From the sequence record ON470581: DNA of 21,284 nt; one strand, 5' to 3'. The translations under genes were made by a program, and so were the position numbers. Source of the stretch: Escherichia phage vB_EcoS-606R9. Shown here piece by piece: positions 1 through 19,117 of the stretch. The notes below the pieces were generated by a model, which was given only the letters and a program-made list of their open reading frames with translations, was not told the origin of the DNA and did no database searches. The first letter of the stretch is position 1. Every line of letters begins with the position of its first letter.

Positions 1-15
1 TTTGTGGGGTCAGCA

Positions 16-480
16 ATGAACAGAGTAACCGCGATTATCTCCGCTCTGGTTATCTGCATCGTCGTCTGCCTGTCATGGGCTGTTAATCATTACCGTGATA
101 ACGCCATCGCCTACAAAGAACAGCGCGACAAAAATGCCAGAGAACTGAAGCTGGCGAACGCGGCAATTACTGACATGCAGATGCGTCAGCGTGATGTTGC
201 TGCGCTCGATGCAAAATACACGAAGGAGTTAGCTGATGCGAAAGCTGAAAATGATGCTCTGCGTGATGATGTTGCCGCTGGTCGTCGTCGGTTGCACATC
301 AAAGCAGTCTGTCAGTCAGTGCGTGAAGCCACCACCGCCTCCGGCGTGGATAATGCAGCCTCCCCCCGACTGGCAGACACCGCTGAACGGGATTATTTCA
401 CCCTCCGGGAACGACTGGTAATGATGCAGGCCCAACTTGAAGGTGCTCAGCAATACATAACCGAGCAGTGTTTAAAGTAA
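16..480 (+). CDS. Rz: Rz-like inner-membrane spanin (i-spanin) of the lysis cassette
   Basis: Starts [23 protein letters not shown] (one N-terminal TM helix) followed by a charged coiled-coil region; closely matches lambda Rz as I recall it (about 153 aa). ATG at 16 chosen; the track ORF begins upstream at 4. Carries an embedded +1-frame lipoprotein ORF, the Rz/Rz1 signature. Confidence 0.85.
236..421 (+). CDS. Rz1: Rz1-like outer-membrane lipoprotein spanin (o-spanin), wholly embedded in Rz in a different frame
   Basis: 61-aa ORF with signal peptide and lipobox (LPLVVVGC|TSK) and proline-rich tracts (PPPPP, PPP), as in lambda Rz1; the embedded-gene architecture is characteristic. Confidence 0.85.
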
Positions 481-617
481 AATCTTAACTACAATATGAT
501 TCATTTTGATGATTGTTTCATAAGGAACAGTGAAGTAAGATCTAAGAGGAGTTAAATTTTATACAGTATAATCATAATATTGCAGCAAGGTGGTTATAAT
601 TGAAAGAATATTTAGAT

Positions 618-2075
618 ATGAATACATCTCATGTAAGAGTTGTTACTCATATGTGTGGGTTCCTGGTTTGGCTCTATAGTCTTTCAATGTTGCCACCAAT
701 GGTTGTAGCATTGTTTTATAAAGAAAAAAGCCTGTTCGTTTTCTTTATAACTTTCGTTATATTTTTTTGCATTGGTGGCGGAGCGTGGTATACAACTAAG
801 AAATCTGGCATTCAATTACGTACCCGTGATGGGTTTATTATAATTGTAATGTTTTGGATTTTGTTTTCTGTTATTAGTGCATTCCCTTTATGGATTGACT
901 CAGAACTTAATTTAACGTTCATTGATGCTCTGTTTGAAGGGGTTTCTGGAATAACAACAACAGGAGCAACTGTAATTGATGATGTTAGTTCATTACCTCG
1001 GGCATATTTGTACTATCGGTCACAGTTAAATTTTATAGGTGGTTTAGGAGTTATTGTTCTGGCGGTTGCTGTATTGCCATTATTGGGTATTGGTGGTGCA
1101 AAGCTTTATCAGTCAGAAATGCCGGGGCCATTTAAGGATGACAAACTCACTCCCCGCCTGGCCGATACGTCACGGACACTGTGGATAACTTATTCTTTAT
1201 TAGGTATTGCTTGTATTGTCTGTTATAGACTTGCAGGAATGCCTTTGTTTGATGCTATTTGTCACGGGATTTCCACAGTTTCGCTTGGTGGTTTCTCAAC
1301 TCATAGCGAGAGTATCGGATATTTTAATAACTATTTGGTTGAGCTGGTGGCTGGTTCTTTTTCCCTGCTATCGGCTTTCAACTTCACTCTTTGGTATATT
1401 GTTATTAGCAGGAAAACGATAAAACCTTTAATCAGAGATATTGAACTTCGTTTCTTTCTGTTAATAGCCTTAGGGGTGATCATTGTTACCTCTTTCCAGG
1501 TCTGGCATATAGGTATGTATGACTTGCATGGAAGTTTTATTCATTCGTTTTTTCTTGCCAGCTCCATGCTCACTGATAATGGTTTAGCTACGCAGGATTA
1601 TGCAAGTTGGCCCACGCACACGATAGTGTTTTTGCTGTTGTCAAGTTTCTTTGGGGGATGTATAGGTTCAACTTGTGGTGGAATTAAGTCACTTCGATTT
1701 CTTATACTTTTCAAACAAAGCAAACACGAGATAAATCAGCTTTCTCATCCCAGAGCGTTGTTGAGTGTAAATGTAGGAGGGAAGATAGTTACAGATCGTG
1801 TAATGAGGTCTGTATGGAGTTTCTTTTTTCTTTATACTCTCTTCACGGTGTTTTTTATACTGGTGTTAAATGGTATGGGATATGATTTTCTTACATCATT
1901 TGCAACAGTGGCTGCATGTATTAATAATATGGGATTAGGTTTTGGGGCTACTGCATCGTCATTCGGAGTGCTTAATGACATTGCAAAATGTTTAATGTGC
2001 ATAGCTATGATTCTTGGTCGCCTTGAAATTTATCCTGTTATTATATTGTTTTCAGGTTTTTTTTGGCGCTCCTAA
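618..2075 (+). CDS. trkG: TrkG-type potassium uptake membrane protein (TrkH/TrkG family), prophage moron
   Basis: 485 aa from ATG 618 (track ORF starts at TTG 600); strongly hydrophobic multi-pass protein with repeated glycine-rich P-loop-like segments (GVSGITTTGATV, IGGLGVIVLAV, GGFSTHS, NNMGLGFGA). Begins MNTSHVRVVTHMCGFLVW, which matches E. coli Rac-prophage TrkG from memory. Markedly AT-rich compared with the flanking phage genes. Confidence 0.85.
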   Translation: MNTSHVRVVTHMCGFLVWLYSLSMLPPMVVALFYKEKSLFVFFITFVIFFCIGGGAWYTTKKSGIQLRTRDGFIIIVMFWILFSVISAFPLWIDSELNLTFIDALFEGVSGITTTGATVIDDVSSLPRAYLYYRSQLNFIGGLGVIVLAVAVLPLLGIGGAKLYQSEMPGPFKDDKLTPRLADTSRTLWITYSLLGIACIVCYRLAGMPLFDAICHGISTVSLGGFSTHSESIGYFNNYLVELVAGSFSLLSAFNFTLWYIVISRKTIKPLIRDIELRFFLLIALGVIIVTSFQVWHIGMYDLHGSFIHSFFLASSMLTDNGLATQDYASWPTHTIVFLLLSSFFGGCIGSTCGGIKSLRFLILFKQSKHEINQLSHPRALLSVNVGGKIVTDRVMRSVWSFFFLYTLFTVFFILVLNGMGYDFLTSFATVAACINNMGLGFGATASSFGVLNDIAKCLMCIAMILGRLEIYPVIILFSGFFWRS

Positions 2076-2161
2076 TATATGGCTGATTTATAATTGTGAG
2101 TTTAATATTATGTTGACTCACTCATTGATCCAATACCTAACTTTACCAGCAACCCCTCCGT

Positions 2162-2196
2162 CCCCAGTAGCACTGGCTGCTGGGGTGCGTTTTATT
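2162..2196 (+). terminator. Putative intrinsic terminator downstream of trkG
   Basis: Inverted repeat CCCCAGTAGC / GCTGCTGGGG (about 10 bp stem with one G-U, 4-nt loop) followed by TGCGTTTTATT; sits at the AT-rich to GC-normal transition. Confidence 0.45.
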
Positions 2197-2212
2197 CATA
2201 AAGCAAGGCTGT

Positions 2213-3004
2213 ATGAGCGAGAAATTAAAGATAGTCTATCGCCCATTACAAGAATTGTCACCGTATGCGCACAACGCCAGGACGCACAGCCCTGAGCAGG
2301 TGGCACAACTGGTAGAAAGTATTAAGCAATTCGGCTGGACTAATCCGGTGCTGATTGACGAAAAGGGCGAAATTATTGCGGGTCACGGTCGTGTTATGGC
2401 GGCTGAAATGCTCAAAATGGATTCTGTTCCGGTCATTGTTCTGTCTGGCCTGACGGATGAGCAGAAAAAGGCGTACCGCCTGGCAGATAATCGCCTGCCG
2501 ATGAATGCTGGCTGGGATGAAGATCTGTTGCGGATGGAGCTGTCGGACCTAATCAATGCTGATTTTGATGTCTCCCTGACAGGCTTCATCCCGACAGAAA
2601 TTGATGAACTGTTGACGGATGTTTTGCCCGGTACAGGAAATGAGGAGGAGCCGTATACGACGAAAATTGATACGCCTGTTTATGAGCCGTCGGGCGGTAA
2701 ACCGGATATCAGTGAACTGTACGACGATACGAAAACTCAGGAGCTGATCAGCCGGATACGTTCGGCGTCCCTTGAGCCTGATATTGAGAAATTCCTCCTG
2801 TGTGCGGCAGAACGTCACACGGTGTTTAATTTCAGCAGAATTGCGGACTATTACGCTCACGCCCCCTCTGAAATTCAGTGTTTTTTCGAGGAGTCGGCGC
2901 TGGTGATCATTGATTATCAGCAGGCTATTGAAAATGGATTTGTCCGGATGACGCAGCGCATGGTGGAGATCATGCATGGTGGTGAGGAGGAGGAATATGC
3001 GTGA
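2213..3004 (+). CDS. ParB-like nuclease domain (ParB/Srx fold) protein
   Basis: N-terminal segment KIVYRPLQELSPYAHNARTHSPEQVAQLVESIKQFGWTNPVLIDEKGEIIAGHGRVMAA resembles the ParB N-terminal domain core, including the G-x-x-R motif; acidic C-terminal half. AAGG Shine-Dalgarno 6 nt upstream of the ATG. Lies between the moron and the packaging genes. Confidence 0.6.
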   Translation: MSEKLKIVYRPLQELSPYAHNARTHSPEQVAQLVESIKQFGWTNPVLIDEKGEIIAGHGRVMAAEMLKMDSVPVIVLSGLTDEQKKAYRLADNRLPMNAGWDEDLLRMELSDLINADFDVSLTGFIPTEIDELLTDVLPGTGNEEEPYTTKIDTPVYEPSGGKPDISELYDDTKTQELISRIRSASLEPDIEKFLLCAAERHTVFNFSRIADYYAHAPSEIQCFFEESALVIIDYQQAIENGFVRMTQRMVEIMHGGEEEEYA

Positions 3005-3929
3005 TGATTTTTGCGCCTTTATTCTGACTCACGGGCGACCGGACAAAGTTCTGACTTACCGGACGTTGCGTCGTGCTGGCTATACCGGGAAAATTTTTAT
3101 CGTTGTTGATGATGAAGATAAGACACGGAATCAGTACATGGCTGAATTTGGTGAACAGGTGCTGGTGTTTTCCAAAGCCGATATCGCCAGTCGTTTTGAC
3201 GAAGCCGATAATTTCTGTGACCGCCGCTCAATTTTTTACGCCCGTAATGCCTGTTTCGACCTGGCAAAACTGGTCGGGTGTAAATACTTCATTCAGCTCG
3301 ATGATGATTATCACGAGTTCCAGTTTCGGGTGGATCGCAACTATGACCAGGCCTATTTTCCGATAAGGAAACTGGATGCGATCCTTTCTGAAATGCTGGC
3401 GTACTACGAATCAATACCTGCTCTTTCCATCGCTATGTCGCAGGGCGGGGATTTTCTTGGTGACAATGGCGGCCATGCTTCGTGGGTGAAACGCAAGGCA
3501 ATGAACAGCTTTATCTGTTCGGTTGATCGACCGTTCTCATTCATGGGGCGCATTAACGAGGATGTGAATACGTACACGAATCTCGGTCGCTGTGGTGAAT
3601 TGTTTATGACGATCGGTGCTGTCCAGTTAGGGCAGAAACAGACGCAGAAAAACAGCGGCGGAATGACCGAGCTGTATCTGGATTCCGGAACCTACGTTAA
3701 AAGTTTTTACTCCGTCATGTATGCGCCGTCGTGCGTAAAAATCTCACTGATGGGTGCCAGCCATAAACGCATTCACCATCAGGTCACCTGGAACAACGCT
3801 GCAGTAAAAATCCTTCACGAAAAATACAGGAAGAAGACACCCTGCATATCAATGGGGGTGACAAATGATTCCGTATTCGAAAGTCGAGTCTCTGGCAGCG
3901 TGCCGGATGACTGCACAACAAATCGCTGA
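2997..3929 (+). CDS. Hypothetical protein with GT-A-like features (DxD-type motif); function unknown
   Basis: 310 aa from ATG 2997, which follows a strong GAGGAGGAGG Shine-Dalgarno embedded in the 3' end of the upstream gene (8-nt overlap, translational coupling); track ORF starts at 2976. Motifs IFIVVDDED and IQLDDDYHEF suggest a Rossmann-like nucleotide-sugar-binding fold, but this is motif-level only. Confidence 0.5.
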   Translation: MRDDFCAFILTHGRPDKVLTYRTLRRAGYTGKIFIVVDDEDKTRNQYMAEFGEQVLVFSKADIASRFDEADNFCDRRSIFYARNACFDLAKLVGCKYFIQLDDDYHEFQFRVDRNYDQAYFPIRKLDAILSEMLAYYESIPALSIAMSQGGDFLGDNGGHASWVKRKAMNSFICSVDRPFSFMGRINEDVNTYTNLGRCGELFMTIGAVQLGQKQTQKNSGGMTELYLDSGTYVKSFYSVMYAPSCVKISLMGASHKRIHHQVTWNNAAVKILHEKYRKKTPCISMGVTNDSVFESRVSGSVPDDCTTNR

Positions 3930-4116
3930 CGTTCTGGATGTTGATCTGAACCGACTGAAAGAAAATCGGGAAGCAATGACAGATTTTTATGCGGCCATCC
4001 GTAAGGGCAGAGCGAAAGGTGAAGCCGAGTTACGAGCGGCATTGTTTAAGCTTGCCAGAAAAGGGGATGCCTTTGCTCTGCGCGAACTACTCAGGGTGGA
4101 TAAAAATCAGGACTAA
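3907..4116 (+). CDS. Small hypothetical protein, possible helix-turn-helix / packaging-associated
   Basis: About 70 aa from ATG 3907 (track ORF from 3865); overlaps the 3' end of the upstream gene and ends 3 nt before the small terminase start; basic, helix-rich (AAIRKGRAKGEAELRAALFKLARKG). Start is uncertain. Confidence 0.35.
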   Translation: MTAQQIADVLDVDLNRLKENREAMTDFYAAIRKGRAKGEAELRAALFKLARKGDAFALRELLRVDKNQD

Positions 4117-4119
4117 CTG

Positions 4120-5214
4120 ATGAGCAGACCGGACTGGGGGGCGTTGCAGCAGGAGTATATTGCTGAATACACCCGCTCCGGTATATCTCCGGTGGCATGG
4201 TGTGAAGCAAGGGGACTGAATTACGCAACAGCCCGTCGTTACATCAAAAAAACTCCGAAAAATGCGCAGACAGAAATGTGCAAAACTGCGCAAAAAAGTG
4301 CGCAGAAAAAATCTGCGCAGACTGCACAAAAGCGGAACGAAAAATCTCAGGAAAAAAAGCCAGTATTCGATGCGGGCCTGAATGAGGGCGACGCGGAGGA
4401 ATTTTCGTTCTGTCCCGATGAATTCGGCATTTCTGACCAGCAGGCTAAGTTTGCGATGCTTGTTGCTCAGGGTAAAAAGCCGACAGAGGCGTACCGACTA
4501 GCCGGTTATGAGGGGCAAGGTGCGACAGCTAACAGCAACGCCAGTCGTATGCTTAGAAATGCCAGGGTTTTTCGCGCTATCAGCTACTTCCGCAATCAGT
4601 ACCAGAAACGCTATACCGCAGACCTGGATTTACTAGTGAGTCAGTTGATGGCTATTGTCCTGGCCGACCCCAATCAGCTTGCACAATTTCGCCGTGTTAA
4701 CTGCCGTTATTGCTGGGGCGAGAATCATCTCTACCAGTGGCGCGATATAGCAGAATTCGACAAGGCAGCGGCGCAGGCTTCCAGAGATGGCAAACCCGAA
4801 CCGGAATATGGAGGCCTCGGCTTTGTTGATAACGCCATACCCAATCCGGACTGCCCGAAGTGCTGCGGTGAGGGAACGGGACAGCTTTATATGGCTGATA
4901 CCACTCTGCTTGATGGGGATGCGCGGCAATTATATGCAGGGGCAAAATTCGGAAAATTCGGCGTTGAGATCCTGCTGGAGGATAAGGCTGCCGCCCGGCG
5001 TGAATTGTTGCGTTTGCTTTCTGCTGGCGGGGATTTATGTGCAGATAAGCGGCTACAGGAACTGGAAATTGAACGGCGCAGAATGGAAAACCAGAAGCTG
5101 CGCAAAGAGATCGAAACGGTGGAAGATAATGAACATCCCCAGCCTGTGGCGATCAATATTAATGTGGTTGATGCCAGAGTAAGGAGTGATGAAGATGATC
5201 TCTCCGACGCTTAA
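4120..5214 (+). CDS. Putative terminase small subunit (DNA-recognition component)
   Basis: Sits immediately upstream of, and overlaps, the large terminase gene; N-terminal HTH-like segment (GISPVAWCEARGLNYATARRYIKK), a Lys/Gln-rich low-complexity linker, Cys-rich segment (CRYCW...CPKCC), C-terminal coiled coil. Assigned by position and architecture. Confidence 0.5.
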   Translation: MSRPDWGALQQEYIAEYTRSGISPVAWCEARGLNYATARRYIKKTPKNAQTEMCKTAQKSAQKKSAQTAQKRNEKSQEKKPVFDAGLNEGDAEEFSFCPDEFGISDQQAKFAMLVAQGKKPTEAYRLAGYEGQGATANSNASRMLRNARVFRAISYFRNQYQKRYTADLDLLVSQLMAIVLADPNQLAQFRRVNCRYCWGENHLYQWRDIAEFDKAAAQASRDGKPEPEYGGLGFVDNAIPNPDCPKCCGEGTGQLYMADTTLLDGDARQLYAGAKFGKFGVEILLEDKAAARRELLRLLSAGGDLCADKRLQELEIERRRMENQKLRKEIETVEDNEHPQPVAININVVDARVRSDEDDLSDA

Positions 5215-6496
5215 TGTGCCTCAGGCGCGATTTCTTTCAATGCCCCATAAATTTAAAGCCTATATTGCTGGTTTTGGCTCGGGCAAAACATGGGTTGGGT
5301 GTGGCGGCATATGCAAGGGGATTTGGGAGCATCCAGGTATAAATCAGGGATATTTTGCGCCAACGTATCCCCAAATTCGCGATATTTTTTACCCTACAGT
5401 GGAAGAAGTTGCTGCTGACTGGGGATTGAACGTAAAAATTAATGAGGGAAATAAAGAGGTTCACTTTTATTACGGACGCCAGTATCGGGGAACCACTATC
5501 TGCAGATCGATGGAGAAGCCACAAACGATCGTCGGTTTCAAAATTGGTAATGCGTTGGTGGATGAACTGGACATTTTGCCGAAGGAAAAAGCCAGAACGG
5601 CGTGGCGCAAGATAATTGCGCGTATGCGTTATAAGATTGATGGACTTCGCAACGGTATTGACGTTACAACCACGCCGGAAGGATTCAAATTTGTCTACGA
5701 GCAGTTTGTTAAAGCCGTGCGTGAAAAAACAGAGCTGGCCTCACTGTATGGTCTGGTGCAGGCATCTACTTTCGATAATGAAAAGAACCTGCCAGCAGAT
5801 TACATTCCTTCGCTTCTTGAATCATACCCTCCAGAGCTGATTAAAGCCTATCTGCGAGGACAGTTTACTAACCTGACAAGTGGTACTGTTTACCATCAGT
5901 TTGACCGGAAACTGAATAATTGCGAAGAAGTGGAGCAGCCAGGGGAGCCGATTTATATTGGGATGGATTTTAACGTTGGAAAGATGGCGGGAATCGTCCA
6001 TGTGCTGCGTTTGGGGCTTCCATGTGCGGTAACTGAAATCATCAATGCCTACGATACGCCGGATATGATCCGCATCATTAAAGAACGCTTCTGGCTGTAT
6101 GATGGGAATGATTACCGGAAAGTGAGGGAAATTTATATTTATCCAGATGCTTCCGGGGATTCCAGAAAATCAAGTAACGCAAGTACGACGGATATAGCCC
6201 AGCTTAAGCAGGCTGGTTTTAACGTTGTGGTGAACAGCTCGAACCCGCCAGTAAAAGATCGCGTTAACTCAATGAATGCAATGTTCTGCAATGCCAATGG
6301 TGAGCGTCGCTATAAAGTTAATGTGAAGCGTTGCCCGTTATATGCCGAATCTCTGGAGCAACAGGTCTGGGATGAGAAGGGGGAGCCTGATAAAAAATCT
6401 GGCAATGATCACCCGAATGATGCCGGAGGTTATTTCATCGTTAAGCAATTCCCTATTGTCAAACCGACCGGAAGAGTCACATCACTTCGGATTTAA
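5195..6496 (+). CDS. Terminase large subunit (ATPase/nuclease)
   Basis: Walker A-like YIAGFGSGKT near the N-terminus and Walker B-like ALVDELD; sits between the putative small terminase and portal genes. ATG 5195 chosen for its spacing from AAGGAG at 5181-5186; alternative starts at 5186 and 5189. Confidence 0.8.
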   Translation: MISPTLNVPQARFLSMPHKFKAYIAGFGSGKTWVGCGGICKGIWEHPGINQGYFAPTYPQIRDIFYPTVEEVAADWGLNVKINEGNKEVHFYYGRQYRGTTICRSMEKPQTIVGFKIGNALVDELDILPKEKARTAWRKIIARMRYKIDGLRNGIDVTTTPEGFKFVYEQFVKAVREKTELASLYGLVQASTFDNEKNLPADYIPSLLESYPPELIKAYLRGQFTNLTSGTVYHQFDRKLNNCEEVEQPGEPIYIGMDFNVGKMAGIVHVLRLGLPCAVTEIINAYDTPDMIRIIKERFWLYDGNDYRKVREIYIYPDASGDSRKSSNASTTDIAQLKQAGFNVVVNSSNPPVKDRVNSMNAMFCNANGERRYKVNVKRCPLYAESLEQQVWDEKGEPDKKSGNDHPNDAGGYFIVKQFPIVKPTGRVTSLRI

Positions 6497-6498
6497 TT

Positions 6499-7905
6499 AT
6501 GGCTGATATATCAACACCCAACCTCGACTATAACGATATGCTGGAGGCGTGGGATATTAACGACGCACTGATGGGCGGTACGCTTGAAATGCGCAGGCAG
6601 GGGGAAAATTATCTCCCAAAATGGCCTAACGAAGATGAAGACGCTTATAAAAAACGCCTGTCTGTGGCTACGCTACTTCCTGTGTATGAAGAAAGCATCA
6701 AGCAAAATATTGGGCGCATATTTGCAGAGCCGACAGTATTGAGTGAGGAAACGCCGGCAAAAATCAGGGAATATGCAGAAAATATCGACATGGAGGGAAG
6801 CCGACTGGATGTGTGGGCGCAGCAATTTTTCAGCCTCGCATTTCAGTATGGTGTGGCACATGCGCTGGTGGACTATCCACGAACGGATATGAAAGAGATT
6901 CGGACAAAAGCCGATGAAAACGCGGCCGGTAGTCGTCCGTACGTTACGATGCTGAATCCACGCCAGGTTATTGGATGGAAATCGAAAGTTGAAAAAGGGA
7001 AAGTTGTTCTCACTGATTTGCGTATAAAAGAGGTCATCATTATTGATGGTGATGATTTCGGGCAGAAGAAGGTGGAGCAGATCCGCCATATTATGCCCCG
7101 TCGAGTTGAAATTTATCGACGTAGCGAAGGCACTAATGGCGAATCTGTCTGGACGCTTCATGAGTCATGGAATACCAGCCGTGATGATATTCCTCTGGTA
7201 ACACTGTACACGAAGAAAACAGGATTTATGCGTGGTACACCGCCATTGCTTAATCTTGGCTTGCTGAATATCAAGCACTGGCAAAGCCAGAGCGAGCAGG
7301 ACAATATTCTTCATGTTGCCCGCGTTCCATTGCTGGTGGCCTACGGGCTGGACAGGAATGAAGAACTGACGGTTGGTGCATCCACCGCTACGATTTTTGA
7401 GGACAGAACAAAAAATGGCCTCGAATATGTTGAACATAGTGGCGCAGCGATAGAATCTGGCGAAACATCACTTGAGAAGCTGGAAAATCAGATGCGTCAT
7501 GCCGGCGCTAAACTTCTGCGTGCTGAAAATACATCCACCAAATCTGTTGATCAGACTAATGAAGAGCGAATGCAGGAAAACTCGCCGCTTTATACAATGG
7601 CGAACTCCCTCGAAGATGCCCTCGATAATATTCTCCAGATAATGGCGGAATGGATCGGAGAGAGTTGCGGTGGCAATGTGGATGTGCGCACTGAACTGGA
7701 TGTATCTGCCCAGGTGTTTGACTCATCCTCCGCGCTGGCTGTTCAGTCATTGCGTCAGGGCGGTGATATACGTCAGATTGATGCGATTCGGGTGTTGCAG
7801 GCGTTGAAATTTATCGATCAGGATTCCCGTCCAGAGGAAGTGATCGATGAATTAAAAAATCAGAGTGTAATGCTGATGGAAATCAATGATGCAAACCGTG
7901 AATGA
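6499..7905 (+). CDS. Portal protein (putative)
   Basis: 468-aa ORF starting 3 nt after the large terminase stop; size and position typical of a portal gene. No motif verified. Confidence 0.6.
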   Translation: MADISTPNLDYNDMLEAWDINDALMGGTLEMRRQGENYLPKWPNEDEDAYKKRLSVATLLPVYEESIKQNIGRIFAEPTVLSEETPAKIREYAENIDMEGSRLDVWAQQFFSLAFQYGVAHALVDYPRTDMKEIRTKADENAAGSRPYVTMLNPRQVIGWKSKVEKGKVVLTDLRIKEVIIIDGDDFGQKKVEQIRHIMPRRVEIYRRSEGTNGESVWTLHESWNTSRDDIPLVTLYTKKTGFMRGTPPLLNLGLLNIKHWQSQSEQDNILHVARVPLLVAYGLDRNEELTVGASTATIFEDRTKNGLEYVEHSGAAIESGETSLEKLENQMRHAGAKLLRAENTSTKSVDQTNEERMQENSPLYTMANSLEDALDNILQIMAEWIGESCGGNVDVRTELDVSAQVFDSSSALAVQSLRQGGDIRQIDAIRVLQALKFIDQDSRPEEVIDELKNQSVMLMEINDANRE

Positions 7906-9001
7906 ACGGCTGCGTGATGAATCAATTGCTCATGCAGTCTGGATATCCCGCTATAGCACTGGCGTGGCTGCCAGAATGGTGAAAATACTGAATGACAGCG
8001 ATGCGGAACTTACTGCTCGCCTGCTGATAGCACTGGACAGCCTCGATCCAGGTAGTTTTACCGTTAAGCGCCTGGAGTCACTTCTGGCGAGCGTCAGAGA
8101 GGTTAACCGCACTGCTATTAACAGCATGTTTACCAGTCTCTCCGGAGAGCTGAACGAGCTGGCAATTTATGAGGCTGGTTATCAGTTAAGTCTGTTTGAT
8201 TCTATGCTACCTGATTTTGTTGCTGATGTTCACCCTCTGGTTGGTATCTCTCCTGATGCACTTTATGCCGCTGCAATGGCGCGACCATTTCAGGGACGAC
8301 TGCTCAGTGAGTGGGCCTCAGATCTTGAGGCGGATCGGCTCAGACGCATAACAAATACAGTGCGTCAGGGTTTTTTGCTGGGGGATACCAATGAGCAGAT
8401 CGCAAGAAAAATTCGGGGACATGTCAGTAAGGGATTTCAGGATGGTGCATTGCAGATGAGCCGGGCTAATGCGGCCAGCATTGCAAAAACAGCGGTTGGA
8501 CATCTTGCTGCTACTGCCCGTGAGAGTTTTGCCAGCGCGAATAATGATTTGATTAAGGGTAAGCAATGGTTATCAACGCTTGATAATCGTACTACGCCAC
8601 AATGTCGAATCAGGGATCGCCTCAAATATACGCTGAATAATAAACCTGTAGGTCACAGCGTGCCTTATTTGCAGGGGCCGGGAAAAATTCATTTCTGCTG
8701 CCGCTCAACGGAAACGTTCATTCTGAAATCAGCGAAGGAACTGGGTATTGATGTTCGCGATATTTCCCCGGCTGAGCGGGCCAGCATGGATGGCGTGGTG
8801 GCCGGAGATACAACCTACAGGGAATGGTTTTTGCGTCAGCCTTACACCAGACAAAAACAGATTGTGGGGGAAACCCGAGCAAAGCTGATTCGGGATGGTG
8901 GTATGTCGCCAGATGAATTTTACACCGATAAAGGCGAATGGCTGACGCTGAAGCAGCTCCGTGAGCGTGATGCACAGGTATTCAGAAAAGCAGGGATTTA
9001 A
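7886..9001 (+). CDS. Head morphogenesis protein (MuF / SPP1 gp7-like minor head protein), putative
   Basis: 371-aa ORF overlapping the portal 3' end; a portal, MuF-like, scaffold, capsid order is typical. Assigned by position and general resemblance. Confidence 0.55.
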   Translation: MMQTVNERLRDESIAHAVWISRYSTGVAARMVKILNDSDAELTARLLIALDSLDPGSFTVKRLESLLASVREVNRTAINSMFTSLSGELNELAIYEAGYQLSLFDSMLPDFVADVHPLVGISPDALYAAAMARPFQGRLLSEWASDLEADRLRRITNTVRQGFLLGDTNEQIARKIRGHVSKGFQDGALQMSRANAASIAKTAVGHLAATARESFASANNDLIKGKQWLSTLDNRTTPQCRIRDRLKYTLNNKPVGHSVPYLQGPGKIHFCCRSTETFILKSAKELGIDVRDISPAERASMDGVVAGDTTYREWFLRQPYTRQKQIVGETRAKLIRDGGMSPDEFYTDKGEWLTLKQLRERDAQVFRKAGI

Positions 9002-9020
9002 ATAAATCATTTATTACAAC

Positions 9021-9048
9021 AGGCTACCTTCGGGTGGCCTTTTTTATT
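9021..9048 (+). terminator. Intrinsic terminator-like hairpin after the head morphogenesis gene
   Basis: AGGCTACC-TTCG-GGTGGCCT (8-bp stem with one G-U, UUCG tetraloop) followed directly by TTTTTATT. Confidence 0.65.
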
Positions 9049-9105
9049 GCTGCGATCCGGATGGTGAGCAGCGTAACTGTCGGAAGACTTAAACCAGGTA
9101 CTAAT

Positions 9106-9870
9106 ATGAAACTGAAAACGGTCGAGATTAACGGAAAACAATACGCAGAAATTGATACTGCTGGCCTGCCAGTTTATGTGCACGACGATGGTAAAGAAAT
9201 TGGCTTCGATGCACCGCTGGCGACAAAAAAAATTACAGAGCTTAATAGCGAGGCAAAAAATCATCGCCTGGCTAAAGAAGCTGCAGAGGAAAAACTGGCT
9301 AAGTTTGCCGCTATCGAAGACCCGAAGAAGGCGATCGAGGCACTGGAAATGCTGTCAAAAATCGACCAGAAAAAGCTGCTCGATGCGGGACAGGTTGACC
9401 AGGTTAAGGCAGAAATTACGAAAAATTTTCAGCAGCAATTAGATGAAGAAAAGCAACGCTCTCAGATGCTGGAGAAGCAGCTTTACGATTCTATGATTGG
9501 CGGTAGTTTTGCGGGTTCAAAATATATTGCCGATAAAATTGCGATCCCGGCAGATTTATTACAATCACGCTTCGGGCAGGCATTCAAAGTGGAAGAAGGG
9601 AGGATCGTTGCTTATGACGCTTCCGGCAACAAAATTTATTCCCGCGCGAAGCCTGGCGAACTGGCGCAGTTTGATGAGGCGCTGGAGTTCCTTGTCGAAA
9701 ATTACCCTCAGAAAGACTACATCCTGAAAGCCAGTGGCAACAATGGCGGCGGCTCCCGTCCGACACAGCATGATATTGGTCAGAAAACGATGAAACGCTC
9801 TGCTTTTGATGCACTGGATGTTGCAGGTAAGCAAAACGCATTGAAAGACGGTATCACAATCGTTGATTAA
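9106..9870 (+). CDS. Scaffolding protein (putative)
   Basis: Helical, charged, coiled-coil-like sequence (EAAEEKLAKFAAIEDPKKAIEALEMLSKIDQKKLLDAG...) immediately upstream of the major capsid gene. Track ORF starts at 9034, but that overlaps the terminator hairpin; ATG 9106 (MKLKTVEING) preferred, ATG 9061 possible. Confidence 0.5.
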   Translation: MKLKTVEINGKQYAEIDTAGLPVYVHDDGKEIGFDAPLATKKITELNSEAKNHRLAKEAAEEKLAKFAAIEDPKKAIEALEMLSKIDQKKLLDAGQVDQVKAEITKNFQQQLDEEKQRSQMLEKQLYDSMIGGSFAGSKYIADKIAIPADLLQSRFGQAFKVEEGRIVAYDASGNKIYSRAKPGELAQFDEALEFLVENYPQKDYILKASGNNGGGSRPTQHDIGQKTMKRSAFDALDVAGKQNALKDGITIVD

Positions 9871-9968
9871 CACATTTGTCAGCTTCCGGATGGGAGCTGG
9901 TGTCAGGGCTGGATAGCTCATTACTCCATCTATTCACAATTACGCAAATTTTTAAGGAATATTTAATT

Positions 9969-11108
9969 ATGGCTGGAAATACCCTGACCGGGTTGATCCC
10001 GACTATTTATACCGCCCTGGATGTTGTATCCCGTGAGCAGGTAGGTTTTATCCCTGCGGTAGCAAAAAACGCAAAAGCTGACGCCGCAGCAAAAGATCAG
10101 ACGGTAACCGCGCCAGTTGCGCCTGAGGCGAAAACCGAAGATATCGTACCGGGGCCGTCAGCTCCGAATACCGGTGATCAAAATATTGGCACTGTTGATG
10201 TAAAAATTACTAAATCCAAAATGGCACCGGTTAAATGGAATGGTGAAGAACAACTGGCTCTTGGTCCTTCAGGGACTTACAACACCATTCTGGCTGATCA
10301 GTTCAAGCAGGCTTTTCGCGCCCTTGCAAACGAGGTTGAGGCTGATCTTGGTGCGTTGTATTTCGGTGCTTCCCGCGCCGTGGGAACCGCAGGGACAACG
10401 CCGTTTGGTGTTAAAGATGATCTTTCTGATGCTGCTCTGGCTCGTCAGGTTCTGGAGGATAACGGCGCACCGACAACCGATCTGCAGATGGTGCTTGGCT
10501 CCACTGCCATTGCTAATTTGCGCGGAAAACAGTCTGTATTGTTTAAAGTGAATGAATCCGGCACTGAACAGCTACTGCGTGAGGGCGTGTTGGGGCGTCT
10601 GGAGGGATTCAATATTCACAGTTCGGCAGGTGTGAAACGAGCGCCAAAGGTTGCTGCAACTGGTTATCTCGTGAATGGAGAGAAAAAAGAAGGCGATGTT
10701 CTTATTTCCATTGATACTGGTTCGGGGAGTATTTCTGCAGGTCAGATTGTTACGTTCGCTGGTGATCCGAATCAGTATGTTGTGGCAGCAGCGACCAGCA
10801 ATCTGATTACTCTTGCAGCGCCCGGACTGCGTCAGGATCTGGCCGATGATACTGCCATCACAGTTGTTGGGGCCTTTACTGCAAATATGGCGTTTGATCG
10901 CAACGCGTTTCTGCTGGCATCCCGTACTCCGGCAATGCCGGAAGGTGGCGATAATGCTGATGATGTAATGAATGTTACGGACCCGATTTCAGGGATTACG
11001 TTCCAGATTGCACTGTATCGTCAGTATCGCCAGGTGCGCTATGAAGTTGGACTGGCATGGGGTGTTTCATCAGTGAAGCCGGCACATGGTTGTCTGATTC
11101 TTGGTTAA
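9969..11108 (+). CDS. Major capsid protein (putative)
   Basis: 379 aa from ATG 9969 with AAGGA about 10 nt upstream (track ORF begins at TTG 9876 with no RBS); follows the scaffold gene and is followed by a strong terminator hairpin, typical of a highly expressed coat gene. Confidence 0.65.
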   Translation: MAGNTLTGLIPTIYTALDVVSREQVGFIPAVAKNAKADAAAKDQTVTAPVAPEAKTEDIVPGPSAPNTGDQNIGTVDVKITKSKMAPVKWNGEEQLALGPSGTYNTILADQFKQAFRALANEVEADLGALYFGASRAVGTAGTTPFGVKDDLSDAALARQVLEDNGAPTTDLQMVLGSTAIANLRGKQSVLFKVNESGTEQLLREGVLGRLEGFNIHSSAGVKRAPKVAATGYLVNGEKKEGDVLISIDTGSGSISAGQIVTFAGDPNQYVVAAATSNLITLAAPGLRQDLADDTAITVVGAFTANMAFDRNAFLLASRTPAMPEGGDNADDVMNVTDPISGITFQIALYRQYRQVRYEVGLAWGVSSVKPAHGCLILG

Positions 11109-11118
11109 ACATTCAAAC

Positions 11119-11140
11119 GGGGCTTCGGCCCCATTTTTAA
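11119..11140 (+). terminator. Intrinsic terminator-like hairpin after the major capsid gene
   Basis: GGGGC-TTCG-GCCCC (5-bp all-GC stem, UUCG tetraloop) followed by ATTTTTAA, 11 nt after the capsid stop. Confidence 0.55.
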
Positions 11141-11150
11141 TGGGGGGCAT

Positions 11151-11327
11151 ATGGCCGGATTAACTAAAGAGCAAAGAGCACAGCGTGAAGCCGCACAAAA
11201 AACGCAAATTGAGTTAGTGGTTATGGTGACCGATTATCAGATGTTTCCCGGCGCACCAACTATCGCTAATGTTCATCCTGATGAAGTTGACAACTGGAAG
11301 GCTATGGGCTGGAAAACTCAGGAGTAA
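11151..11327 (+). CDS. Small hypothetical protein (58 aa), not in the supplied ORF track
   Basis: ATG 11151 to TAA 11325-11327, translating MAGLTKEQRAQREAAQKTQIELVVMVTDYQMFPGAPTIANVHPDEVDNWKAMGWKTQE; fills the gap between the capsid terminator and the next gene, same strand. Coding status unproven. Confidence 0.3.
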   Translation: MAGLTKEQRAQREAAQKTQIELVVMVTDYQMFPGAPTIANVHPDEVDNWKAMGWKTQE

Positions 11328-11330
11328 CAC

Positions 11331-11726
11331 ATGATCACTTACGTGACCTGTGATGACGTTGATAATGCGTTTGGGAACGCCTGGACGAGTGAGAACGCTA
11401 AAAATAAAGCTGTTTTAATGGCTAATGCCTGGCTTAATGGCTTCAACCTGAAAATTAACCCATCCCGTATTCCGGAAGAGGTAAAACTTGCGGGAGCATA
11501 TGCAGCCAGAATTGCCTCATTTGGTAAGTTGTTTCAGCAGAAAAATGATTCTGGCGTTGTTATCAGTAAAGCCGTGTCGGCTGACGGGGTCAGTGTATCG
11601 AAATCATTTTCTGAGTTGCCAGCAAACAGCACTGCATTGCTTGAACCCGATTTACAGCTTGCGATAGCACTGCTGAAACCGTACGGACTTAGTCGCTCAC
11701 AAGTCAGGGTTGTGAGGGGGGGATAA
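11331..11726 (+). CDS. Head completion / head-tail connector protein (putative, by position)
   Basis: 131-aa ORF, first of four tightly packed small genes (about 126-131 aa each) between capsid and major tail genes, with start/stop overlaps typical of head-tail joining genes. Confidence 0.4.
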   Translation: MITYVTCDDVDNAFGNAWTSENAKNKAVLMANAWLNGFNLKINPSRIPEEVKLAGAYAARIASFGKLFQQKNDSGVVISKAVSADGVSVSKSFSELPANSTALLEPDLQLAIALLKPYGLSRSQVRVVRGG

Positions 11727-12109
11727 TGGGGCTTCGTGAAGAGATTCAGTCAGAGGTTGCCGCTGCTTTTGATGAGGATTTAGCGGACGCCGTGAGTGAT
11801 TTTTCTGGTTATTACGTTACGCACCGGCACTGGGATCCTGTGACGGAAACTGGCGGCGAATCCACCGCAATCTATACCGGGCGAGGCGTGTTGACACGTT
11901 ATAAGCTGGGCAGAATTGATGGGATTAATATTTTGCATGGTGACCTTAAATTAACCGCTCTGGTATGCGAGGTTACGGATAAACCAGCTGTCGACCATAT
12001 TATTGAGATTTATGATCCTGTATCAAGGCAGTTACAACGATACGAGGTAATTACAGCAAGTTTAGATCCTTCCGCATCAGTTTACTCTATCCAGTTAAGG
12101 AGAGCGTAA
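11726..12109 (+). CDS. Head-tail joining protein (putative, by position)
   Basis: 127-aa ORF whose start overlaps the upstream stop (ATAATGG); position within the head-tail joining block. Confidence 0.4.
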   Translation: MGLREEIQSEVAAAFDEDLADAVSDFSGYYVTHRHWDPVTETGGESTAIYTGRGVLTRYKLGRIDGINILHGDLKLTALVCEVTDKPAVDHIIEIYDPVSRQLQRYEVITASLDPSASVYSIQLRRA

Positions 12110-12490
12110 ATGGCAAAGGCATGGGATATAGAACCGTCAATATTTGCCGGGATGATTGAGGAAGATGTAGGGCTGAAGATTCGCTACATCGCTATGCAGA
12201 TTCTTACTGCTATTGATATTGCTGCTCCGGTTGATACCGGACGTTTCAGAAATAACAACCTGGTGTCGTTACAGCATCCCGATTTTGGTATATCTGATAA
12301 CGTGGATCCGAACGGTACGATTGCTGTTCAGCGTGGGATCGGGGTTATTTCGAAAGCTGCAAATTACGGGGTTATTTATATCCAGAATAACCTTCCTTAT
12401 GCAGAGGCTCTTGAAAACGGTCATTCACAACAAGCGCCAACTGGCGTGTATGCCAACGCTTTTTATGGTGTTTTACAGGCTTACAAATGA
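12110..12490 (+). CDS. Tail component / neck protein (putative, by position)
   Basis: 126-aa ORF starting directly after the upstream stop; third gene of the head-tail joining block. Confidence 0.4.
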   Translation: MAKAWDIEPSIFAGMIEEDVGLKIRYIAMQILTAIDIAAPVDTGRFRNNNLVSLQHPDFGISDNVDPNGTIAVQRGIGVISKAANYGVIYIQNNLPYAEALENGHSQQAPTGVYANAFYGVLQAYK

Positions 12491-12879
12491 AGTTTACTGA
12501 AATCAGAAATACGGTTATTTCCAGAATGACGGCACAGACGATTATTGATGGAAAAGACGTATTGTATCCGAACGGGCCAACGTTCGATCCTTCCGGTAAG
12601 TTAATCTGGGCGCGGTTAAGTAATATTCCCGGGCAGGCTGGGGTTAATGAAATTGGCGCGGGGCCGGTTGTTTATCGCACGGGGATAATCATTATTCAGT
12701 TATTTGTCCCCGCAGGTTCTGGTTCAAAACTCATTACTGAGACAGCCGATAAATTGCGGGAACTGTTTGAGTTTCAGGATGACGATCGTCTCAGTTACCA
12801 GGCTGTTTCCTCAATAGCCGTCGGCGAAAAGAATGGCTGGTTCCAGCTTAATCTTCAAATTCCATATCGCGCGCTCTAG
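12487..12879 (+). CDS. Tail completion / tail terminator protein (putative, by position)
   Basis: 130-aa ORF overlapping the upstream stop (ATGA); immediately precedes the major tail gene, where lambda-like phages carry gpU-type tail terminators. Confidence 0.4.
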   Translation: MKFTEIRNTVISRMTAQTIIDGKDVLYPNGPTFDPSGKLIWARLSNIPGQAGVNEIGAGPVVYRTGIIIIQLFVPAGSGSKLITETADKLRELFEFQDDDRLSYQAVSSIAVGEKNGWFQLNLQIPYRAL

Positions 12880-12905
12880 CGCAATTAATGACATAGGAGG
12901 CTTCT

Positions 12906-13868
12906 GTGAGTTCAGGTGCAAAGGTTATCTCGGCATTTATCCGGGAGACAGTTGCAGGCACTACGCCAGCAAGTGGTGACTGGAGTTTATTAAAACGCAC
13001 AAGCTGGGGAGTAAAACCCACCCAGAATAAAGGCGAAAATAATGAGATTGGTGGCTCCCGGATGGCTCAGGGGGCGACGCCTGGCACTGTGGATGTCGGC
13101 GGTGATGTTGGTACCAAATTTCGCTGGGGTCAACATGATGATTTTCTTGCATCCTGTTTCGGCGCGGAATGGTCAGGCGATTCTCTGACAATGGGGAATG
13201 AGCGAATAACATTTTCTCTGGCGACCTATGCGTCCGATGTCGGAATTGCCTCTGTCGTCAGAGGAGCGCAGGTTGGCTCATGGAAAATGCAGATCCCTAA
13301 CGACGGCGATATTACAGCGACCGTAACCTTTGCCGGGCTGGGCTGGGAAACAAAGGCCGATGATACGAATTTTATCAAAGGCAAACCTGTGGATAGTGCA
13401 GGAAAGTTACGCTATTCGTTTAAGGAGGTTTCAGCAGTAAGCCTGAATGGTGTTGCCGGAGGTAACGGTTTTTGTATCGACAGTTTTGATATTCAGTTCG
13501 ATAACAAACTCCAGACACAGCGTTGTATCGGGACTGGCTCGCCTTATGCAGGAGCAAATATTCCGACTACTTTTACACCGTCCGGTACGGTGACGCTTTC
13601 ATGGTCTAAAGCCGCGTGGGAAATCTGGAGTAAAACACTGACTGGAGAAACAGTTCCGTTCAGCTTCACGCTTTCGAATGGAGAGGGGGCATACACTTTC
13701 AGTTTCCCGAAGGTTCAGGTGTCAGGTGAATGGCCTGATGGGGGTAATACTGACATTATCCAGGTTCAATTGAGCATTACCGCAGCAGATGAAGCACCTA
13801 CGATAACCAGAAAAAAATGCTCCCCGACTGCCGTGATCGCAAAAGCCAGTGCTGATGCGATTAGTTGA
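12906..13868 (+). CDS. Major tail (tube) protein (putative)
   Basis: 320-aa ORF with GTG start 12906, preceded by ATAGGAGG; Gly/Thr/Ser-rich beta-type composition; sits directly upstream of the G/G-T chaperone pair, as lambda V does. Confidence 0.6.
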   Translation: MSSGAKVISAFIRETVAGTTPASGDWSLLKRTSWGVKPTQNKGENNEIGGSRMAQGATPGTVDVGGDVGTKFRWGQHDDFLASCFGAEWSGDSLTMGNERITFSLATYASDVGIASVVRGAQVGSWKMQIPNDGDITATVTFAGLGWETKADDTNFIKGKPVDSAGKLRYSFKEVSAVSLNGVAGGNGFCIDSFDIQFDNKLQTQRCIGTGSPYAGANIPTTFTPSGTVTLSWSKAAWEIWSKTLTGETVPFSFTLSNGEGAYTFSFPKVQVSGEWPDGGNTDIIQVQLSITAADEAPTITRKKCSPTAVIAKASADAIS

Positions 13869-13880
13869 TTTTCCGTTATT

Positions 13881-13907
13881 CCCCCTGTGGTACTGCACTA
13901 CAGGGGG
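13881..13907 (+). promoter_or_regulatory. Hairpin upstream of the tail chaperone gene that includes its likely Shine-Dalgarno
   Basis: CCCCCTGT (13881-13888) pairs with ACAGGGGG (13900-13907), 8-bp stem and 11-nt loop, no U-tract. The GGGGGA at 13903-13908, the best SD for ATG 13917, lies in the 3' arm. Confidence 0.35.
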
Positions 13908-13916
13908 ACGCATTGA

Positions 13917-14378
13917 ATGAGGTTATGGATGTTTATTCTTAATCAGAAAATTATCATCGGTGGAGAACGCTGGTTTACGCCAATGAAGGACTTAAAACCT
14001 GTAGACGGGTTAAAACTGTTGGTGGCAAGCAGCGATAACGATCAGTATCGCTCCCGTAATGCATTAATCCGTCGTCACATTGAGAAAATGGATGCCAGTT
14101 TGCACGTCGGAACGAAGGAGTTTGATATTTCAAAGGTTTCCGAGGTAGATTCTGTTGATGATTTACTCATTGATAATGCTGCTCGTTATCTGCTGAAAGA
14201 CTGGAAAGGGGTTGGTGAACTGGTTAATGGTGCTGAGGTTGCACTGGAATATACGCCAGAACGAGGGATCGCGCTGCTTAAGCAGAATCCAGAGTTGTAC
14301 TGGCAGATCCTTGCAGAAGCAGCCAGCATCGCCCAGGGTAAAGAGCAGCAGAAGCAGGATACGATAAAAAAGCCATAG
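13917..14378 (+). CDS. G: Tail assembly chaperone (lambda gpG analogue)
   Basis: 153-aa acidic ORF between the major tail and tape measure genes, ending in the slippery heptamer A_AAA_AAG just before its TAG stop. Downstream ATGs at 13929 and 13983 are alternative starts. Confidence 0.65.
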   Translation: MRLWMFILNQKIIIGGERWFTPMKDLKPVDGLKLLVASSDNDQYRSRNALIRRHIEKMDASLHVGTKEFDISKVSEVDSVDDLLIDNAARYLLKDWKGVGELVNGAEVALEYTPERGIALLKQNPELYWQILAEAASIAQGKEQQKQDTIKKP

Positions 14379-14686: not shown

Positions 14687-14810
14687 TTGTTAATTACGTA
14701 CACTCTGTTACAGAGATGTGATGGTGTCTTTAATTAAATCGATGATGCTCCTGGAGAAAAGCATTGCGTGGCCTCGTAATCGCTATATCTACTATTATGT
14801 CGCCTGAAAC

Positions 14811-14838
14811 CCACTTCGGTGGGCTTTTTGTTGTCTGG
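14811..14838 (+). terminator. Terminator-like hairpin just upstream of the tape measure gene
   Basis: CCCAC-TTCG-GTGGG (5-bp stem, UUCG tetraloop) followed by CTTTTTGTTGT; lies in the 163-nt spacer between the G-T stop (14686) and the tape measure start (14850). Confidence 0.45.
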
Positions 14839-14849
14839 AGTTTTAATAA

Positions 14850-19112: not shown

Positions 19113-19117
19113 ATCCC

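Follow-up and report, generated by a model that had tools for sequence, protein, structure and literature searches.

The window analysed here is a 21,284-nt stretch of record ON470581 (Escherichia phage vB_EcoS-606R9), in which an AT-rich block of 1.66 kb (481 to about 2146) holding a single gene, trkG (618–2075), separates the lysis genes from those for packaging, with the block and its neighbouring genes on the strand shown. To the left of the block lies the last gene of the lysis cassette, an intact i-spanin gene Rz of the rzpR/rzpD type (16–480; Pfam Phage_lysis, 178.8 bits), with the o-spanin lipoprotein gene Rz1, which corresponds to K-12 rzoR, nested inside it in the +1 frame (236–421; Pfam Rz1, 69.5 bits). 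The PGAP label at the equivalent position of Rz is ‘lysis protein’. To the right, beyond an AT-rich 3′ tail (2076–2146) and an intrinsic-terminator-like hairpin (2162–2195), the first gene is a full-length ynaK (2213–3004) encoding a 263-aa ParB-like protein (Pfam ParB_N, phrog_620). The 87-aa YnaK of K-12 is an N-terminal stump of this protein, and annotation pipelines, following the K-12 ‘ynaK’, mislabel the full-length gene as partial.

The original prediction, made from the bare sequence, held that base composition falls sharply after the Rz stop and recovers near 2150, and its coordinates were right to within a few bases. Change points in GC placed by likelihood fall at 452 and 2146, and 200-nt windows drop from a GC fraction of 0.51–0.55 (1–500) to 0.32–0.44 (401–2200) before returning to 0.47–0.51 from 2101 onward. 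The island from 481 to 2140 has a GC content of 36.6%, while the minimum for any 1,660-nt stretch between 2213 and the end of the window is 42.2%. By segment, GC is 52.4% in Rz, 25.5% in the trkG leader (481–617), 38.1% in trkG itself (32.3% at third codon positions, GC3), 27.7% over 2076–2140, 54.2% over 2141–2212 and 48.5% in the remainder. Composition across the region is thus not uniform, and the change points bracket exactly one gene. Among 23 genes, trkG has the lowest GC (z = −2.5) and the lowest GC3 (z = −1.9), but its synonymous-codon score is no outlier, and codon usage was dropped as a marker of foreignness for this reason; the compositional check proposed with the prediction is borne out for GC and GC3 and not for synonymous codons. 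The other phage sequence in the window is heterogeneous too, ranging from 40.7 to 58.3% GC. The left edge of the island is the Rz stop, and the cassette shared with E. albertii ends just past the trkG stop, the AT-rich tail being absent from the E. albertii copy. A search for repeats flanking the island, or for duplicated target sites, returned just short, chance-like matches.

The block contains one long open reading frame with two possible starts, TTG at 600 or ATG at 618, and a stop at 2075. As a Trk-family transporter the gene is as predicted: its 485-aa product, a membrane subunit of the Trk K+ uptake system and a paralog of TrkH, matches Pfam TrkH (PF02386) at 484.2 bits against a cutoff of 27, over profile positions 3–500 of 502, and passes TIGR00933 (415.4 bits, cutoff 331.15). 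Residues 7–485 align with residues 4–485 of Vibrio TrkH, for which structures are solved (3PJZ, 4J9U), with E = 1.2e-120. TrkH, the core Trk pore subunit of E. coli and Vibrio, therefore shares family and full-length alignment with TrkG, but the two are paralogs at ∼41% identity (TrkG against enterobacterial TrkH), and TrkG scores below the cutoff of the NCBIfam TrkH equivalog (449.7 versus 866). All 485 residues are identical to TrkG of E. coli K-12 MG1655 (b1363), and judged by these matches the window gene is the ortholog of K-12 TrkG rather than of TrkH. The ATG at 618 is backed as the start by Buttiauxella and Morganella orthologs, which begin at the equivalent codon. We rejected the TTG at 600 despite a well-spaced Shine–Dalgarno-like AAGGTGG (587–593, 6 nt before this TTG and 24 nt before the annotated ATG): the six codons it would add show no conservation at the protein level in E. 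albertii or E. fergusonii, and the ortholog starts point to 618. By analogy with K-12, TrkG would supply the membrane pore in a K+ uptake system of Trk type, partnered by host TrkA and by SapD, a further host-encoded partner of TrkG, and unlike its core paralog TrkH it would need Na+ for K+ uptake and would also carry Na+ itself. For the identical K-12 protein, a study published in 2022 on TrkG transport properties and H-NS regulation (PMC9898762) describes expression, K+ transport that is Na+-dependent, Na+ uptake and a shared TrkA subunit, and sets it apart from TrkH, which neither requires nor carries Na+ and whose gene has 53% GC and no H-NS regulation.

The 137-nt leader and promoter region of trkG (481–617) is identical to that of K-12, from which the window shows no differences between positions 175 and 736. 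Against the E. albertii cassette it is 83% identical overall and 95% identical over 560–600, while the synonymous sites of trkG differ at 53%. The prediction described TATAAT-like hexamers at 567–572 and 595–600 and no convincing −35; both are in fact exact TATAAT motifs, both are conserved in E. albertii and E. fergusonii, and a consensus scan found no acceptable −35 in the leader and no full sigma-70 consensus promoter in 500–617. Since 4.5% of shuffles of this AT-rich leader contain two TATAAT motifs (P about 0.045), the pair alone is weak evidence. The AAGGTGG element is kept in E. albertii, and in E. fergusonii, whose protein is 79% identical, the same layout appears as TATAAT ... GGAGG-TATAATTG ... 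ATG, with GGAGG as its version of the element. Transcription starting near 579, as expected from the TATAAT at 567–572, would keep the purine-rich 587–593 inside the leader; this hexamer is the preferred and probably the most likely −10, with 595–600 as the alternative candidate. The sole candidate of the consensus scan upstream of trkG, at 471–500, is poorly conserved and was set aside. A search of positions 1–2600 for Rfam matches at E ≤ 1, a riboswitch for K+ transport being among the elements sought, returned none.

Published work on K-12, with which the leader is identical, points to an active promoter. SELEX with the RpoD holoenzyme gave a peak attributed to the trkG promoter in the K-12 sequence (PMC5811629), and PMC9898762 reports activity of a lux fusion carrying the K-12 upstream fragment and a rise of trkG mRNA in hns mutants. 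In the literature, trkG figures as a low-GC foreign gene of Rac that has its own promoter and is partly repressed by H-NS. In a lysogen, trkG would thus be transcribed from its own sigma-70 promoter within the leader, and H-NS and StpA acting on the AT-rich DNA would, going by the literature, lower its expression and not silence it.

A downstream hairpin terminator had also been predicted, and a strong hairpin with a T-run is indeed present, although it lies outside the AT-rich block. The stem (2162–2185) has 10 bp, seven of them G-C pairs, is followed by TGCGTTTTAT and ends, with its T-run, 18 nt before ynaK; its folding energy of −22.5 kcal/mol corresponds to z = −4.0, and none of 200 shuffles folds as well. 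It is situated in GC-normal DNA, outside both the AT-rich block and the segment shared with E. albertii. In ETEC1706, a relative that lacks trkG, sharp 97% homology starts at ∼2188, within the T-run, and a different hairpin with a U-run occupies the equivalent place. Because of this position, and because ETEC1706 has its own hairpin there, it is doubtful that trkG has a terminator of its own, and the terminator probably belongs to the phage backbone and not to the imported block.

The window is collinear with Rac of K-12, as the prediction anticipated in pointing to rzpR-rzoR-trkG-ynaK-ydaY. Positions 36–2466, where K-12 homology in ynaK ends, align with rzpR-rzoR-trkG-ynaK at 99.7% identity (7 nucleotide differences over 2,431 nt), and 14027–15784 align with ydaY-ynaA at 98.5%. 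Between them, blastn comparison with K-12, run for the window and for L001, delimits an 11.56-kb segment deleted in K-12 Rac (2467–14026), which carries the 3′ part of ynaK and glycosyltransferase, terS, terL, portal, head and tail-tube genes. K-12 trkG (b1363) has the same protein, leader, left neighbours (rzpR/rzoR) and right neighbour (the 5′ part of ynaK) as here; the window differs in its intact Rz, in a ynaK of 263 rather than 87 aa and in the packaging, head and tail genes of the 11.56-kb segment. The best-matching genome is 100% identical over positions 1–4200 of the window and 99.98% identical over 1–19124. There, the element adjoins ttcA and carries intR, xisR, ralR, recET, kilR and racR, and it keeps 8.2 kb upstream that are absent from K-12, with Q-like, tRNA, holin and endolysin genes; the Rac attachment site and early region lie outside the window, and the ttcA arrangement is known from this genome. 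Deletions of 8.2 kb on one side and 11.56 kb on the other have left K-12 trkG on a remnant of 2.43 kb. By these alignments the element is a longer version of Rac and more than a Rac-like prophage, the K-12 copy being derived from the long form by two deletions. Strain SY3626 carries this late module too, joined there to an early region of lambda/DLP12 type. The prediction that the flanking late genes are largely intact holds in that the segment lost by K-12 is retained, but an in-frame TAG (amber) at 17346 interrupts the tape-measure gene, so the late region cannot count as fully intact; in the 100% identical genome, ydaU is frameshifted as well. GenBank ‘phage’ records with this region were rejected as proof of viable virions, since they are PHASTER-predicted prophage regions from draft genomes.

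Among 5,426 complete E. coli genomes, 1,551 carry trkG and about 850 the long Rac form; more than 1,500 genomes hold trkG at 99% identity or above, and the Rz–trkG junction is invariant in 1,502. In IMG/VR the junction is kept in 80 of 80 loci and the right side is broken at more than 20 positions, although an argument for retention from these loci is biased because they were chosen for carrying trkG. High-identity trkG occurs, among 50,697 deposited phage records, only in Rac-type ones, and trkG and recE are reported to be the best-conserved Rac genes (PMC5700373). Retention is not universal, as the Shigella flexneri copy is degraded. In E. albertii, a copy with 93% aa identity and 38% GC lies in a 4.3-kb islet between sdsR/yebY and pphA, with about 35 nt of Rz left and homology to the window ending at 2079; the E. 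fergusonii copy, at 79% aa identity, stands beside porin genes. These chromosomal cassettes have the same gene and conserved leader layout as here, equally AT-rich in E. albertii, but unlike the Rac copy they are not in a prophage late operon. More generally, relatives at 66–79% identity lie outside recognisable prophage late operons, three being chromosomal and the Serratia copy residing in an integrative island. No AT-rich donor lineage emerged among the nearest non-Escherichia relatives examined, from Pectobacterium, Enterobacter, Serratia, Buttiauxella and Morganella (61–77% identity), whose genes have 43–57% GC versus 38% here, some equal to their own flanks and some lower. Between the E. 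coli and E. albertii copies, dN/dS is 0.047 with a dS of 0.93, and on these values the cassette is under strong purifying selection, seemingly for a benefit to the host, while the surrounding prophage decays. In the part of PMC9898762 that is available, no growth benefit of trkG was found in single mutants under the stress conditions tested.

Taken together, the block from 481 to about 2146 is very probably the trkG cargo cassette of the lambdoid prophage Rac, here in a variant that retains packaging, head and tail genes. The K-12-identical product, the low GC and the collinearity with Rac agree with the predicted horizontally acquired cargo, but the label of a moron fits only in part: the composition is distinct, whereas a synthetic Rz-3′/ynaK-5′ junction probe found no empty site, with both halves within ∼800 nt, in any of the 5,426 genomes, which makes insertion between formerly adjacent genes a putative event. 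The comparators are one-sided (ETEC1706 and phage Rac-SA53). It would be quite improbable, in our estimate, that the block is instead an ancestral AT-rich part of the Rac late module to which the moron category does not apply, even though the missing empty junction, the invariant Rz–trkG junction in the genomes and all 80 viral contigs, and the movement of the Rz-trkG-ynaK-late module as a unit in SY3626 all fit it. The sharp change points around exactly one gene argue against such an origin, as do the ynaK-terS module of ETEC1706, which lies behind a different lysis cassette without trkG, and thousands of prophages that share this Rz type and lack trkG; in other prophages, Rz homology stops at 405, at 458 or at the Rz stop codon plus 4 nt. 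In Rac-SA53, LT-IIa toxin genes (eltIIaAB) occupy the slot of trkG between endolysin and terS, and E. albertii and E. fergusonii each have the promoter-plus-gene unit by itself at another chromosomal locus. Like the morons lambda bor and Rac-SA53 LT-IIa, trkG is cargo of distinct composition that follows the lysis genes and precedes those for packaging, is expressed while the prophage is repressed and benefits the host; unlike them, it has no empty-site comparator, its terminator is probably outside the imported unit, and its product is an ion transporter of housekeeping type, not a virulence factor. Present in three Escherichia species at loci unrelated to one another (the late operon of Rac in E. 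coli, the sdsR islet in E. albertii and the porin-gene neighbourhood in E. fergusonii), each time with a conserved non-canonical leader, a compact cassette of promoter and gene (∼447–2080) may be what moves and is under selection, in place of the prophage; we regard this as a tentative and rather unlikely extension.

Since trkG has the same orientation as the late operon and no terminator is predicted between Rz and trkG, antiterminated late transcription during lytic growth should run through trkG and the hairpin at 2162–2185. This arrangement, in the late transcription unit of an element whose late genes are nearly complete, would suit a gene of primarily phage benefit, in which late-operon expression sustains cytoplasmic K+ and turgor during virion production and expression in the lysogen is incidental. 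We give this little credence, as trkG is kept in prophages incapable of making virions (K-12 with its two deletions, and tape-measure amber mutants) and in the E. albertii islet without phage genes, has a low dN/dS and has relatives outside late operons, and since Rac-type records are the only deposited phage records with a high-identity copy. Least credible of all is an origin of the low GC in AT-biased drift, with trkG a silenced gene in decay rather than a functional foreign one. Faster diversification of H-NS-bound DNA, as cited in PMC9898762, and the degraded Shigella flexneri copy would accord with drift, but the intact frame and the low dN/dS effectively refute it; in addition, the product is identical to an experimentally active K-12 protein that is expressed and transports K+, and near-identical copies persist in so many genomes. 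For the Rac cargo cassette, the selected benefit would then go to the host, the cassette persisting as the prophage around it decays.

The block is the already known trkG gene of E. coli Rac, reportedly described as a low-GC foreign gene from 1991 onward, and it adds little as a discovery. The value of the check lies mainly in showing that comparative evidence bears out the textbook ‘moron with its own promoter and terminator’ only in part, and that K-12 Rac is doubly deleted, with trkG on a 2.4-kb remnant and ynaK reduced to a stump. If the cassette is the mobile unit, trkG would offer a tractable case of cargo that outlives its prophage and escapes from it; placed in the Rac late operon, it would also be expressed in a second way, during the lytic phase, with possible consequences for the phage. 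The distribution of the cassette over several loci in Escherichia could illustrate, on a small scale, how cargo of a prophage turns into a gene of the host.

The AT-rich block at 481 to ~2146 is trkG of the Rac prophage, which is already known, and what we add here are increments only, concerning its boundaries, the ownership of the terminator, the absent empty site and the presence of the cassette (trkG plus its leader) at multiple loci. The trkG ORF (618-2075, plus strand) matches Pfam TrkH at 484 bits and clears the cutoff of TIGR00933 but not that of the TrkH equivalog, and its product from ATG-618 is identical to E. coli K-12 TrkG (485/485 residues) and can be aligned end to end with the solved Vibrio TrkH structures, which bears out the original prediction of a single TrkH/TrkG-family transporter. 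According to PMC9898762, citing Schlosser et al. 1991, the gene was called foreign on account of its low GC (38% vs 53% in trkH) and its location in rac; the same source describes K+ uptake via TrkG as requiring Na+, which TrkG also takes up, and implicates D327.

The expected likeness to E. coli Rac also held upon alignment to K-12: window 36-2466 is 99.7% identical to rzpR, rzoR, trkG and ynaK, and 14027-15784 is 98.5% identical to the ydaY-ynaA part. The genome that matches best shows 100% identity in the first 4.2 kb and 99.98% across 19 kb, and its element adjoins ttcA and carries intR, xisR, ralR, recT, recE, kilR, racR and ydaSTUV. Collinearity with K-12 and this ttcA context indicate that the window is the late region of Rac itself, longer than the K-12 copy. 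Relative to the long form, the Rac variant that keeps its packaging, head and tail genes, K-12 has one deletion of 8.2 kb upstream, from a DUF1627 gene into the first Rz codons, and a second, downstream, of 11.56 kb (window 2467-14026), which runs from the middle of ynaK almost to ydaY, with trkG the sole intact gene on the 2.43-kb remnant separating the two. Among 5,426 complete E. coli genomes, trkG is found in 1,551, nearly always as a single copy with at least 99% identity, and the long form in about 843-867; of the 1,558 places where trkG occurs in complete E. coli assemblies, 15 are on plasmid records. All nine GenBank 'phage' records that show this arrangement were predicted by PHASTER in draft genomes; none comes from sequenced virions. 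A query with 481-2212 also matched a record named 'Salmonella phage SPF_0923', at 99.6% identity to the window. Upstream of the window, the best-matching genome (L001 12790-16183) carries the anti-phage pair iteA/iteS (ATPase and S8 peptidase), which in long-form Rac is flanked by replication and Q-like regions and lies inside the 8.2 kb deleted in K-12.

The GC trough is real and its edges are sharp. GC per 200-nt window is 0.51-0.55 before 500, 0.32-0.44 over 401-2200 and 0.47-0.51 from 2101 on, and maximum likelihood places the composition change points at 452 and 2146, confirming the predicted drop after Rz and return near 2150. By feature, GC is 52.4% in Rz (16-480, plus strand), 25.5% in the 137-nt trkG leader (481-617), 38.1% in the trkG ORF (GC3 32.3%), 27.7% in the segment 3' of trkG (2076-2140), 54.2% in the segment before ynaK (2141-2212) and 48.5% in the remainder of the window. 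The phage backbone is heterogeneous too (40.7-58.3%); the island has 36.6% GC, versus a minimum of 42.2% for any other 1,660-nt stretch of the window. The GC and codon-usage check proposed with the original prediction sets the trkG ORF apart only in part: its GC and GC3 are the lowest among the 23 genes scored (z = -2.5 and -1.9), whereas its synonymous-codon likelihood is not an outlier.

At the left edge, the Rz similarity of other prophages ends at window 405 (lambda/DLP12 type) or 458, and one aligned prophage Rz stays similar as far as the stop codon plus 4 nt, beyond which divergence is complete. At the right edge, 97% homology to ETEC1706, a genome that lacks trkG and has the ynaK-glycosyltransferase-terS module behind another lysis cassette, starts at ~2188, within the T-run. 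The cassette of E. albertii is common to the window only over 438-2079 (84% nucleotide identity), a segment that takes in about the last 35 nt of Rz and ends 4 nt past the trkG stop codon. The imported unit would thus span roughly 447/481 to 2080/2146. The hairpin predicted to terminate the transporter gene is present (2162-2185, plus TGCGTTTTAT; -22.5 kcal/mol, z = -4.0), but it lies outside both the AT-rich block and the cassette shared with E. albertii, and is more likely a part of the phage backbone that precedes ynaK. ETEC1706 has another hairpin and U-run at the matching position just upstream of ynaK (L003 5935-6005; -28.3 kcal/mol, z = -2.6), which makes the pre-ynaK terminator look like a conserved backbone feature.

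The proposed label of moron has partial comparative backing. We searched for an empty site with a synthetic probe joining the Rz 3' end directly to the 5' end of ynaK, and none of the 5,426 complete E. coli genomes had the two halves within ~800 nt of each other, so the joined site expected of a classic moron was not found. The distinct composition does support cargo status, if indirectly, as do both flanks, each of which is separately known elsewhere without trkG. In phage Rac-SA53 (KU052037), which has no TrkG homolog, the slot held by trkG in the window is instead occupied by the LT-IIa heat-labile enterotoxin genes eltIIaA and eltIIaB, between endolysin and terS (L026 5687-6827). Instead of Rac recET/racR, E. 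coli SY3626 (L027 1-17000) has a lambda/DLP12-type early region (with exo, bet, gam, kil, cIII, P, ren, nin genes, quuD and a porin gene) attached to the Rz-trkG-ynaK-late block; the block therefore recombines as a module, here in a mosaic exchange of the entire late arm. Composition, trkG-less flanks, the Rac-SA53 slot and the SY3626 module indirectly argue for the trkG block being phage cargo.

The flanking late genes had been described as largely intact, and the region is indeed near-complete yet not intact: the tape-measure ORF (14850-18083) is interrupted by a single in-frame amber TAG at 17346-17348 (codon 833; CAG in SY3626), and ydaU is frameshifted in the 100% identical genome. SY3626 has an independent CAG-to-TAG change in its tape-measure gene, at codon 768. 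ynaK (2213-3004, plus strand) is a 263-aa ParB-like ORF, and the K-12 'ynaK' (87 aa) is its N-terminal stump, truncated at window 2466 by the larger of the two deletions; PGAP labels the full-length gene of long-form genomes 'partial, missing C-terminus', it seems from taking the K-12 stump as its reference. Over 2213-3929, this ParB-like gene (phrog_620) precedes a TET-associated-type glycosyltransferase, and the two stand directly upstream of terS; the glycosyltransferase is labeled PF20691 by Pfam, phrog_842 'beta-glucosyl-HMC-alpha-glucosyltransferase' and, by PGAP, 'GREB1-related'. The pair may form a DNA-modification module; TET/JBP is absent from the annotation of the best-matching genome. 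Just before terS (4120-5214, 364 aa), an 83-aa ORF (3865-4116) matches the C-terminal part of the small-terminase family phrog_309. The equivalent in Rac-SA53, a phage that also has a pertussis-like toxin pair upstream of its holins, is annotated 'gpOterS; fusion of two genes by deletion'.

In the leader, exact TATAAT hexamers occur at 567-572 and 595-600 and no acceptable -35 was found for trkG, both as predicted. Two TATAAT arise in 4.5% of AT-rich leader shuffles, so the hexamer count alone is weak evidence. The stretch 560-600, which holds both hexamers and AAGGTGG, is 95% identical in E. albertii, with the synonymous sites of the gene differing at 53%, and E. fergusonii (79% protein identity) keeps the layout TATAAT ... 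GGAGG-TATAATTG ... ATG. The trkG leader is thus under constraint, and we favor 567-572 as the probable -10 element. TTG-600 has a Shine-Dalgarno element at good spacing, but the six additional codons are not conserved as protein and the Buttiauxella and Morganella orthologs begin at the ATG-618 equivalent, so the annotated start stands. Since the window leader is identical to that of K-12, published K-12 results transfer directly: as reported in PMC9898762, citing Schlosser et al. 1991, trkG transcription increases in hns and hns stpA mutants, the wild type not being silenced, and the upstream fragment is active as a lux fusion; genomic SELEX assigned to the trkG promoter one of the few RpoD-holoenzyme peaks in K-12 prophages (PMC5811629). 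Because trkG runs in the direction of the late genes, with no predicted terminator separating it from Rz, antiterminated late transcription would be expected to read on into trkG and express it too.

The wider TrkG clade (61-79% identity) extends across Enterobacterales, and the four representatives examined each lie in a different neighborhood, with no prophage late operon. GC in this clade ranges from 42% (E. fergusonii) to 57% (Enterobacter, where it equals the flanks), and no convincing low-GC donor was found among these relatives. All 80 IMG/VR loci share one Rz-trkG junction, while breaks on the right side fall at more than 20 different positions, though these loci were selected for trkG presence, which biases evidence from junction retention. 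In Shigella flexneri SFBU0723 (L023 6001-7423), trkG in a Rac-type context is a pseudogene split into several frames, and its ynaK-to-terL neighbors are still 92-100% identical. In E. albertii NBRC 107761, a 4.3-kb islet (L007 4738-9055) is inserted next to the sRNA locus sdsR/ryeA, with yebY and pphA on its two sides; it contains trkG (93% aa identity), about 35 nt from the 3' end of Rz, plus an NleF-like ORF, and looks like the leftover of a decayed lambdoid prophage. Between E. coli and E. albertii, trkG has a dN/dS of 0.047 and a dS of 0.93, close to that of the E. albertii core neighbors yebZ, yebY and rsmF (0.72-0.92). The cassette therefore dates back to roughly the species split and is under strong purifying selection.
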